NCBI GenBank assembly: GCA_027050205.1
Contig: JALUCS010000101.1
Coordinates: forward strand, 1-31,226
DNA length: 31,226 nt
Source of the DNA: a candidate division WOR-3 bacterium
GTDB taxonomy: Bacteria > Hydrothermota > Hydrothermia > LBFQ01
Direction of reading: 5' to 3'
In this document: positions 1 to 3,000 of the stretch, piece after piece
Layout of the letters: every line of letters begins with the position of its first letter
How positions within the stretch are numbered: position 1 is the first letter of the stretch
Position numbers: made by a program

Positions 1-3000
1 GGGTGGGACTCTGCCAGAGGGGGGCCATCCTCAAGGCGAAGAAGGGGTGGGATTACCGGAAGATACTGAAGTTTTACTACCGGGGGACTACCGTCCGGAA
101 GGTGGGGCGTTGAGCCACTCGTCCCAGAAGACGAACCACCGGTCTGTCCAGCGATACACCGCCCTGTAGAGGTGGCCGGCGAACCAGTTGAGGGCGTCCT
201 CTACACTCCTTGGCAGGTAGGGGGGGCTTACCTCGGCGTAGTACTTACCACCCTCGCAGGTTCCCACCGGGACGCCGTAGGCGAAGACGACGGGGGTACC
301 CGTCTCCAGGGAAAGGCGGGCGAACCCGGTGGGTACGTTCCTGTAGCCGCATCCCAGTTTTATGATACGGCCCTTCTCCCGCGATACGTTGCGATCGGAG
401 ACGAGATAGACGAACTTCTTCGCCCTTATAGCCTCAACTAACTTCGGATAGGCCCCCCTCACCGGGACTATCTTTAGGCCGAACCTCTCCCTTATCTTCA
501 GAAACTCCCTGAACCACTCACCGGAGGGTACCTCCGCTACGGCTACCCCCTCAAAGCCGAGGACGCCCGCTATGTTGGCGAGGAACTCCGGGTTTCCGAG
601 GTGTCCCGTGACCACGATGAGGGCCTTTCCTCTGAACTCCTCGGCGTACTCTATGCCGTCTATCCTCAAAATCTTCCCCTCAACCCACTCCCTGCTGACA
701 TAAGGGATCATCAAGGCGTCGGCTACCGTAGCCCAGAAGTACCGAAACGTTTTCTCCCACCCGGTTTCGTCTCCTCTGATCATCCTGAAGTTCTTCTTTA
801 CCACCTCCCTCCTCCTACGGCTGAACCGCATCTGAAGGTCACCGATCGCCCCCGTAAGGGCGCACACCTTGCCGTACCCCAACCGGCCTGCGAGGTAGTT
901 GGCTACCCTGAAGGCCTCTATGGTCAGTTTCTTCTTGACGCCCTTCGGTATCATCACAGACTCTGCCAGTACCTCTTCATAAGGAGGGCGTCCCCCTCTA
1001 TGTTGGGGCTTTCGGATACGATGGTCCCGTCCGCCCCGTACTCCTTCAAGACCCGGAGGATGTCCCGCCAGATGAGATCGGACTCCTCAAGGTTGAGGTG
1101 GTGCCTCTCCCCCTTCTTGCCGTACGCGATCCCGGAGATGTGGATGTGGAGCCTCTTCAGGGCCTCGTCCCCGAGGTACTCTCTGACTTTATCCAAGACG
1201 CGGGCGACGTCCTCCGGTTTCAGTAGAATGCCACCGCCCCGCGCGTGGAGGTGGGCGAAGTCTATGCAGGGTAGGACACCATCCACCTCCGCCGAAAGCT
1301 CCAGAACCTCCTCCAAGGAGCCGTACTGGGAGGGTTTGCCCGTCGTCTCCGGCCTAAGCACCACCTCTATACCCTCCTCCTTCAGCCGGGCAGTCAGGTC
1401 CTTGAGGATAGAAACGACCTGTCTGTGTACCTTCCTCGGTTCGTCCCCGAGATAGTAGGCTGGGTGGAAGACGATGTCCCTCGCCCCCGCCATCGCCCCA
1501 ATGCGGGCGGAGTCGTATATCCTCTTTATGGAAGCCTCCAACTTTTCCCTCTCCCTCGCGTAGAGGTTTATCCAGTAGGGGGCATGGACGGTGAGGGTAA
1601 GGCCCAACTCCTCGGCCAACTTACGCACCTTTTTGGCCTTCTCCTCCCTCATCCTGACCCCCCTGACGAACTCCAACTCCATACCGTCAAGGCCCAACTC
1701 CGCCACCCTCCTAAGCCCGGCCTCGGTTGAGGAGCCGGGGGAAGATAGGGGGACACCCGCCGTCAGGAACTTCATCGGAAGGTAGTTTAAGGTAGAGCGT
1801 TCTCCGGTCCCTTTTCTGCGGTAGAATACCCTTCCATGACGGAAGTCCTTATGTGGTTTTTCGCCATCTTGGCCATAATAGGGGCCTTTACGGTGGTGCT
1901 TAACCCCAACCCCTTCTACGGCGCCCTCGGCCTCCTGTTGAACTTCCTCTCCCTGGCCGGGATCTACATGCTCCTGCAGTCCCCTATCCTCTCTCTCCTG
2001 CAGGTCCTGGTGTATGCTGGAGGTATAATCGTCTTCTTCCTGTTCGTCATCCTCCTGCTGCACCTACGCAAGCCCTTGAACGACCGCGACGCCTCCCTCA
2101 AGGGAGCCATAGCTATGGTCCTCGTCGTCCTCTTCGCCATCGTCGGCGTGGTAGCCCTCTTCGTCTATCCCCTCAACGATTTCTCTCTCTACTACGTAAC
2201 GGCGAGGGACCTCGGCAACTTCATGCTCACGGACGGCCTCTTCGCCTTTGAGCTATCCTCCTTCCTCCTACTCGTGGGCGTCGTCGCGGCTATAAACATA
2301 GTGAAGCGCTACAAGGAGGGTAAGCGATGACACCGGTCTTCGTACTCTCCCTGGCCTTCATTCTTTTCTCAATAGGCCTCCTTGGGGTTCTCTTTAGGAA
2401 GAACTTCATCGTTATACTGATGAGCCTTGAGCTTATGCTCAACTCCGCCAACCTCGCCATAGTGGGGGCCTCCGAGATGTTCGGCGGCAAGGGGGTTCAG
2501 GGACACTTCCTCGTCCTGATGATCCTCATCATAGCCGCCGTTGAGGTGGCCATAGGTTTGGCCATAGCCATACACATGGCTCGCGTCGCCGGTACGGTTG
2601 AGGTGGATTCCCTGTCGGAGCTACCCAAGTAATTGAGAGGTTTATCGCCGGCGGCCGCCCTCTTTCTGGGCTACATCGCCATATCCGTCGTAGGGGGGTT
2701 TGTCCTCTACCTTCCCCCTATGCACAACGGGGGGATTTCCCTCCTGGACGCCCTCTTTACGGCCACTTCCGCCGTGTGCGTTACGGGTCTCATCGTGGTG
2801 GACACGGCTAAGGCATGGACGGTGTGGGGGAAAGTCGCCCTCGCCCTCCTCATCCAGATCGGGGGTCTGGGGTACATGACCCTGGGCGCCCTCCTCTTCG
2901 CCGCCATAGGTTCCAAGGGTTCCCTTCGGGCCAGGAGGATGCTGGCGATGAGTCTCGGCGCCCCCACCCTCTCTGGCATACTGGAGATGGCGAAGAAGGT

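Follow-up and report, generated by a model that had tools for sequence, protein, structure and literature searches.

The nuoJK Locus

The window, i.e., the whole stretch of 31,226 nucleotides that was analyzed, comes from a genome (hereafter G000) of LBFQ01, which we take to be an order of WOR-3, and carries two complex I genes at the head of a mixed operon. The first, nuoJ (1836..2330, forward strand), matches the NCBIfam NuoJ models at E 5e-21, below the curated cut-offs, with one match in each of five relatives (5/5), and the second, nuoK (2327..2632, forward), scores 87.6 bits against the NCBIfam NuoK cut-off of 57. The two genes are coupled by a 4-nt overlap (ATGA), and a Shine-Dalgarno (SD)-like AAGGAGG of nuoK lies within the 3′ end of nuoJ (2313..2319, forward). 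A compact leaderless promoter is predicted 8 nt before the nuoJ ATG (1816..1827, forward), reading C(1816)-n-n-C(1819)-n-n-TAGAAT(1822–1827), with no −35 box. The stop codon of nuoK is abutted by a new operon partner, a gene for a TrkH/KtrB-family K+ uptake membrane protein (2633..3964, forward; TIGR00933, E 2e-95), followed by a coupled TrkA-family gene (3964..4653, forward; NCBIfam TrkA models) and a coupled open reading frame (ORF) of 234 aa to which the profile search assigned no NCBIfam family (4650..5354, forward). Inside the 3′ end of this ORF lies the predicted leaderless promoter (C...TAGAAT; 5341..5352, forward) of radA/sms (5359..6657, forward; TIGR00416, above cut-off), which forms the next cassette.

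The divergent, non-nuo neighbor of nuoJ is an endonuclease IV (nfo)-like gene (954..1775, reverse strand; TIGR00587, E 3e-18, below cut-off). The order nfo-nuoJK-trkH is also present on contigs from two other studies, and the nfo-like gene and nuoJ are on different contigs in four of six same-genus genomes. Within the genus, the window splits into blocks that begin at predicted promoter motifs, e.g., at about 9100, and the block of matching DNA with nuoJ begins at 1809–1821 in five of the six genomes.

Complex I Genes of the Genome

G000 comprises 2.05 Mb in 135 contigs (57% G+C, 93.5% complete, 0.92% contaminated), and the sequencing run that best matches its DNA is labeled “hydrothermal vent metagenome.” Gene starts come from our own simple ORF caller, and some are misplaced. 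Contig ends share 127-nt overlaps, by which the contigs were ordered into 72 chains. The survey's finding that 14 nuo genes lie at 13 places on 12 contigs was borne out by the NCBIfam models, which identify NuoA to NuoN there; the 13 places fall on 12 contig chains, nuoD and nuoG sharing one at a distance of 21.5 kb. All 14 genes are single and intact, and nuoJ-nuoK is the only nuo-nuo adjacency. Scores exceed the curated cut-offs for B, C, D, H, K, L, and M, exceed one of two for F, and are below them for A, E, G, I, J, and N. NuoD is of the quinone-reducing type and is not a NiFe hydrogenase large subunit (TIGR01962, 571.7 bits against a cut-off of 459.35; HPATHG and RLDY present). What we take to be the Fe-S ligand and antiporter motifs are present in NuoB, E, F (Cys motif), G (two of four), I, H, K, L, and M, and several other patterns that we presume to be typical are unmatched in NuoD, F, G, L, M, and N by simple pattern matching without alignment. 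A single match each for nuoD and nuoH in G000 points to one complex I set, and within the genus nuoD shows strong purifying selection (pN 0.03–0.07 vs pS 0.45–0.67).

Non-nuo neighbors on both sides, given by the survey for 12 of the 13 places, are now seen at 13 of 13 places, the flanking genes matching no nuo family; the open contig end at nuoI was closed by a 127-nt overlap between contigs C35 and C9, such that NuoI ends on C9 and is followed by a Cof-type HAD hydrolase. The neighbors include ribA, tsaD, acpS, tmk, gmk, GGGP synthase, creatininase-like, nfo, and trkH genes as well as unassigned ORFs. Five nuo blocks are the heads of new mixed operons, and nuoK and nuoC, like atpC, atpE, and atpK, are internal genes of transcription units. 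An exact TAnAAT precedes the start codon by 7–9 nt at 11 of the 13 places, the number that the survey gave; the other two are nuoC, which is internal and has an SD-like GGAGG, and nuoH, which lies behind a tRNA gene. Among nuoD loci of other lineages, another nuo gene is adjacent in 80 of 80 (68 with full flanks; these loci are the 80 best among the first 600 hits to the pattern and hence a non-random set), and nuoD has no nuo neighbor in 19 of 19 genomes of the order (one flank short in two).

Predicted Compact Promoters and RpoD

TAnAAT hexamers in G000 peak 6–10 nt before gene starts, at 58–218 per position vs 2–8 at 14–30 nt. Counting from the hexamer, 92% of 688 sites have C at −6 and 70% have it at −3, and no base upstream of −9 is conserved. 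The predicted promoter of the family reads C-n-n-C-n-n-TAnAAT-N6-10-start, and the motif presumably acts as a promoter of transcripts that are translated leaderless. The pattern was counted in 64 genomes of the class (19 of the order, 12 of these in the family, and 45 others), using the reversed pattern as control. The share of excess sites with TTG at the −35 distance is 0.05–0.13 in 19/19 order genomes vs 0.17–0.67 in 45/45 others, a comparison whose control is imperfect for A+T-rich genomes. The C at −3 is order-wide in the sampled order genomes, and the family has the extra C at −6, with a share of 0.65–0.91 in 12/12 family genomes vs at most 0.38 in the other 52. Sampled leaderless sites agree with these counts: TTG stands at the −35 distance in 27/49 sites of family f8, 17/22 of f6, and 8/15 of f11; C(T)T directly precedes the hexamer in genera g4 and g3; and in G036, which represents another genus of the family (mean identity to G000 60%), C is at −6 in 135/141. 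As a sequence pattern, the predicted leaderless promoters have lost the −35 box and gained the upstream C on the branch to the order.

The housekeeping sigma factor differs along the same boundary. At the junction of regions 2.4 and 3.0 of RpoD, presumably E. coli position 446, Q is replaced by H in 18 of 18 order sequences and in none of 25 outgroup sequences, which makes this His a candidate residue for reading the altered promoter. A loss of sigma region 4.2 was also considered and is not seen, as the region keeps the RER.RQ recognition residues. The loss of the −35 box, the sigma change, and the scattering of mur genes described below share the order boundary and are one evolutionary event (n = 1).

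The motif overlaps the upstream coding sequence in 82 of 371 co-directional promoter-bearing genes of G000, and for 49 of the 371, vs 0 of 24 in the f8 genome G024, the hexamer begins on the stop codon of the upstream gene. Such overlap with the upstream gene or its stop codon suggests a way in which an internal gene could gain the motif in place.

Starts Abutting tRNA Genes

Complex I subunit gene nuoH, a homolog of ND1, has no motif of its own because a tRNA-Val gene bearing that promoter sits in front of it. Its only conserved start is a TTG located 1–2 nt after the end of tRNA-Val in 11 of the 11 family genomes looked at, with no SD sequence, and the nuoH mRNA is probably freed by processing of the upstream tRNA-Val. 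The arrangement is not confined to nuoH: a called ORF starts 0–4 nt after 12 of the 43 tRNA genes in G000, and ORF starts abut tRNA genes at 9 of 21 in samples from the order vs 0 of 18 in outgroup samples. When 10 of the 12 candidates were scanned, family profiles confirmed the start (match from residues 1–4) for rpmG, rpmB, murA, gatC, prs, and an Rrf2 regulator. One scanned ORF matches no family, the profile match of an oxidoreductase neither supports nor contradicts its start, and cmk was set aside as its profile match begins at residue 39. A canonical RNase Z was not found in G000 (93.5% complete) with TIGR02651 or E. coli rbn, and none of 20 genomes scored above the cut-off.

Stepwise Break-Up Among Relatives

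The loci of relatives were picked around target genes and are not a random sample. The number of nuo blocks forms a series of 2 (G024), 7 (G033), 10 (G028), and 13 (G036 and G000). In G024 (family f8), the blocks are ABCDEF and GHIJKLMN; in G033 (same order, genus g4), they are AB, C, D, E, F, G, and HIJKLMN; and in G028 (genus g3), they are AB, C, D, E, F, G, H, I, J, and KLMN. Twelve nuo places were located in G036; nuoL itself was not located in G036 or G043, and in G036 it is elsewhere, not beside K, M, or N. An intact, conserved 14-subunit set has been taken apart in steps, two blocks giving way to 13 places. As J and K are split in G028 but kept together in G000, A-B is kept in family f2, and H-N is kept in genus g4, part of the break-up is parallel between branches. 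The downstream partners are old, with nuoB-ribA, nuoH-acpS, and nuoJK-trkH-trkA present in G036. These three odd linkages, and also nuoN-GGGP synthase and esterase-nuoC, are found in a genus other than that of G000; upstream neighbors vary even within the genus.

The survey had worried that clustered nuo-like genes of relatives were a weak control, possibly belonging to a hydrogenase-like complex. This worry was resolved, as true complex I orthologs of the 14-subunit type are clustered in families f5, f8, f9, and f12 and in genus g4. The view that all clustered nuo-like genes in relatives are hydrogenase-like was rejected; it holds for f3, f10, and f11 only (25–39% identity). Lineage-wide scattering is real and tightly linked with leaderless promoters, the promoter preceding nuoD in 19/19 order genomes vs 0/10 of the outgroup rows listed. 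Outside the order, nuoD stands alone without a leaderless motif in 5/5 f12 genomes, and nuoH stands alone in the f6 and f7 loci that were fetched. Family f6 has 172–335 leaderless-type sites per Mb, yet retains a nine-gene nuo-like operon. G036, G028, and G033 each have a second set of A, B, C, D, H, and I, likewise scattered; a second J or M was not found in these genomes with single-protein queries.

Other Operons and Cassette Shuffling

Scattering extends beyond complex I, although the survey's claim of a near-complete dissolution of operons was too strong: operons were reshuffled instead, and ribosomal and RNA polymerase blocks persist. In G000, co-directional pairs make up 1287 of the 1807 pairs of adjacent genes, and 586 of 1852 genes begin no more than 5 nt from the gene upstream; an SD-like motif is present in 298 of the 586 and a promoter motif in only 14. 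Nor does every gene have its own promoter, since the motif precedes the called start in about 38% of called genes (727/1913). A rough count gives 1165 transcription units for the 1913 genes, 717 of them single-gene. Blocks that are kept include tuf-S10-rplNX (15 genes), rpsN-rpmD, rpmJ-rplQ, and nusG-rplKAJL-rpoBC, as well as groESL, clpPX, secDF, tolQR, rpsB-tsf, and rimP-nusA-infB, and the S10-spc-alpha region is split into five pieces. The pairs sdhA/B, sucC/D, pheS/T, and accB/C are split as well, and so are the lpx and mur genes. Every mur ligase gene stands apart from the others in 9 of 9 order genomes, and 9 of the 10 outgroup genomes with hits have them in one cluster; one further outgroup genome has no mur ligase hit.

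Further claims of unlinked genes fared unevenly. The A/V-ATPase genes do lie at six places, and eight of the nine reported were found (A, B, C, D, F, and I-K-E); the ninth (G/H) was not found in G000 with one outgroup query. Subunit genes A and B are apart as described, but this is no trait of the order: outgroup families also have the main-type A and B at separate places, so the split predates the order and ATPase scattering was rejected as an order trait; only a second type, of more distant kinship, has A next to B. The survey's further proposal was that promoter strength would set subunit balance; atpK, the gene for the high-copy c-ring, is internal to its unit and has a strong SD sequence. 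The glycine-cleavage genes gcvT and gcvPB are unlinked, whereas gcvH and gcvPA are adjacent, and sdhA and sdhB are apart with sdhC not located. The separation of gatA, gatB, and gatC was upheld (three contigs; gatA and gatB identified by short motifs), as was that of the 16S, 23S, and 5S rRNA genes, which are on three different contig chains. E. coli queries gave no match in G000 for heme-copper oxidase, cydAB, ftsA, or sdhC.

Gene order is shuffled in cassettes that correspond to transcription units. Of the tightly coupled junctions, 62 of 127 are kept between G036 and G000, compared with none of the 46 that precede promoter-bearing genes, none of the 24 divergent ones, and none of the 28 convergent ones. 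In family f8, genomes of a single genus are likewise shuffled relative to each other (one 20-kb query) with nuo still in two blocks, and shuffling alone therefore did not split the nuo genes of f8. G000 contains 34 pairs of repeats that are at least 300 nt long and at least 90% identical, a count that the assembly may have lowered by collapsing repeats; its largest paralog family is short and presumably resembles Uma2 nucleases.

Proposed Mechanism and Alternatives

We suggest that compact promoters drove the break-up in the following manner. Promoter and translation start would fit within about 20–25 bp before the start codon, at the usual Shine-Dalgarno position, and an internal operon gene could gain a promoter in place, even in the end or the stop codon of the upstream gene, and so become independent. 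Pre-existing, class-wide shuffling would then carry the freed gene off, along with its downstream genes, at little cost. Complex I would be made from 13 transcripts, comprising 11 leaderless nuo heads, nuoH released via tRNA-Val processing, and nuoC as a passenger. Subunits may assemble after translation, with balance arising from constitutive promoters of a similar kind and from turnover of surplus subunits. On balance, it seems somewhat likely that the compact promoter made operons cheaper to split in a class that was already shuffling. The break-up itself was most likely near-neutral and not an adaptation.

Several observations were counted against this mechanism, namely the lone nuoD of f12 without the motif, the lone nuoH of f6 and f7, the ATPase split of outgroups, the nine-gene operon of f6, the shuffling of f8 with nuo still in two blocks, and the retention of RER.RQ in sigma region 4.2; the joint change in promoter, sigma factor, and mur gene order also amounts to a single case. 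Thermus and Deinococcus keep the whole nqo/nuo operon, and the coexistence of −10-only leaderless promoters with a whole operon in these bacteria also counts against the mechanism. Moreover, more transcription units mean more promoters, whichever arose first.

Shuffling may instead have come first, in that operons fell apart under a high class-wide rate of rearrangement with little selection to keep gene order, and promoters were the cheapest repair or a co-traveler. This reading is a credible but less probable one. It accommodates the shuffling of f8, the ATPase split and lone nuoD and nuoH outside the order, and the f12 nuoD without the motif, and it has precedents in Helicobacter pylori and Synechocystis, which lost ancestral operons and built new ones by rearrangement (PMC1480536). 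However, −35 use does not overlap between the order and the outgroups, g4 already lacks the −35 box with seven nuo genes still joined, and mur scattering matches the order boundary. Among called proteins, there is also no multi-copy, near-identical family of long genes hinting at an expansion of insertion sequences, although assemblies may collapse such repeats.

A selective benefit of modularity, by which separate expression allows modules to be swapped, e.g., two sets of A/B/C/D/H/I on one J-N arm, would suit the second scattered set of these genes in G036, G028, and G033, but it is improbable given that G000 has a single set, that mur, sucCD, pheST, accBC, and sdhAB are scattered too, and that the nuo promoters are alike. 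An assembly or binning artifact might be suspected in a metagenome assembly of 135 contigs with strain variants, but it was rejected as having next to no probability, as non-nuo genes lie on both sides within contigs, contig ends overlap, the same odd partners occur in another genus, contigs of two other studies span the junctions in the window, and contamination is 0.92%.

Comparison With Known Systems

Complex I genes in several clusters are known from Rickettsiales, cyanobacteria, and Aquifex. Spero et al. give co-localization in 86% of genomes with complex I (PMC4453560), and Moparthi and Hagerhall describe dispersed nuo genes in two or three clusters (PMC3144371); the rows available of supplement 1 of Spero et al. 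have no co-localization column. As here, full 14-gene sets outside a single operon occur in Ignavibacterium album (PMC3362086) and Ca. Thermonerobacter (PMC6338057), and the second, 11-gene-type set in relatives resembles that case, but the nuo genes of I. album form three clusters rather than 13 places. Our literature search, which mostly did not extend to subscription journals, gave no nuo case beyond about three clusters and no such arrangement or promoter, an outcome compatible with the survey's claim that this would be the most fragmented nuo arrangement described; “operon” and “scattered” are absent from the available part of the WOR-3 review PMC12542636, and “nuo” from PMC7750005.

In Deinococcus radiodurans, a −10 motif is enough for promoter activity, and Deinococcus-Thermus resembles the present case in having TAnnnT 6–7 bp before the ORF, mostly without a −35 box, at about a third of genes (PMC12340547). 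The motif described here is stricter (TAnAAT) with C at −6 and −3, its −35 loss is traceable within a class, and it is linked to operon break-up. A leaderless promoter replacing the ribosome binding site splits an operon in Campylobacter jejuni (PMC3847290); that study and PMC1480536, the latter for H. pylori and Synechocystis, describe old operons lost and new mixed ones formed, as here. The Epsilonproteobacteria of PMC3847290 have 23 leaderless genes in two species, whereas here there appear to be hundreds, with core respiratory complexes split gene by gene. In mitochondrial tRNA punctuation (PMC3790967), starts directly follow tRNA 3′ ends without SD sequences, and the starts described here are alike, that of a complex I membrane subunit included; they differ in being bacterial, in involving only some tRNAs with no canonical RNase Z found, and in being predicted from sequence. 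Separate 16S and 23S rRNA genes have been described (10.1101/705046), and here 5S is apart too. Operon loss and −10-only leaderless promoters are thus known phenomena; new are the graded series and, apparently, the promoter element with the upstream C, which seems to be undescribed.

Implications

The purpose of operons is disputed among co-regulation, noise control, and co-translational assembly (PMC1480536). Complex I is a standard example of a conserved operon, and a series of 2, 7, 10, and 13 blocks in one class is a natural test on one enzyme. If the broader reading set out below is true, this complex I would surpass in fragmentation any other known from a bacterium, and operon-based co-translational assembly would be dispensable for the largest bacterial respiratory complex; we regard post-translational assembly and the direction of cause as plausible readings of the pattern. 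The predicted starts behind tRNA genes would make this a bacterial case of tRNA-punctuated leaderless messages, and annotation based on operons or SD sequences will miscall starts and miss complexes in these genomes. More broadly, and only tentatively, the order may have rewired its housekeeping promoter, dropping the −35 box for a C element read by an altered sigma70, and so turned its genes into portable cassettes with a 20–25 bp head, such that complex I, ATP synthase, and the cell-wall pathway would be made from separate, mostly leaderless mRNAs, some of them tRNA-released in a mitochondria-like manner.

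Complex I Genes and Respiration

Three related genomes encode a second, scattered nuoA/B/C/D/H/I set: G036 from the same family (loci L093, L104-L107, and L056) and, elsewhere in the order, G028 (L123-L126 and L055) and G033 (L132, L165, L166, and L054). Single-protein queries found no second nuoJ or nuoM in these three genomes, and the J-N membrane arm may be common to the second set and the main, 14-subunit-type set. No second nuoA/B/C/D/H/I set was seen in the genome under study (G000). The main set of family f5 has the uncommon gene order nuoG-nuoI-nuoB-nuoD (L347, L348, L350, and L351).

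G000 contains a MenA-like gene, and Escherichia coli queries of its whole genome matched neither a heme-copper oxidase nor cydAB. A gene for an Rsr/Ro60-like RNA-binding protein (L017:6475-7992) lies near the ATPase I-K-E unit.

Cell Division, Cell Wall, and Repeat Proteins

The cell-division genes of G000 may be divergent, with a weak FtsZ-like match (32%, 75 bits; C93:55239-55892) and no match to E. coli ftsA. No Mur ligase was matched in G013 of family f6 (95% complete, 20 contigs).

Examination of the window by eye identified two tandem FG-GAP-like repeat proteins, predicted to be secreted (7304-9030), the first with a sorting-type domain at its C-terminal end. Elsewhere, G000 carries a long tandem repeat (C107) and an expanded family of short paralogues (C49, C73, C93, C97, and C122), which we take to resemble Uma2 nucleases.

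Transcription and tRNA-Abutting Genes

The rRNA genes of G000 are unlinked, with 16S, 23S, and 5S on separate contig chains (C12, C117, and C127), and the 16S 3' end retains CCTCCT. Sequence comparison of RpoD, whose gene is split across contigs C92/C95 (L070 and L215), revealed that, where sigma70 regions 2.4 and 3.0 meet, H replaces Q as a trait specific to the order; further changes, near region 4.2, are specific to the family.

In G000, a tRNA gene runs into the nuoH start codon (C63:19658-19732, reverse strand; L241). The start codons of rpmG, rpmB, murA, gatC, prs, and a Rrf2-family gene (L232-L237) likewise directly follow tRNA genes that, as at nuoH, lack an encoded CCA. No canonical RNase Z was found in G000 with TIGR02651 or E. 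coli rbn, and 0 of 20 genomes exceeded the cut-off. In relatives, rplS-like and rpmE-like genes and the second nuoA also abut tRNA genes. The tRNA-abutting genes could possibly be expressed as tRNA-punctuated leaderless mRNAs.
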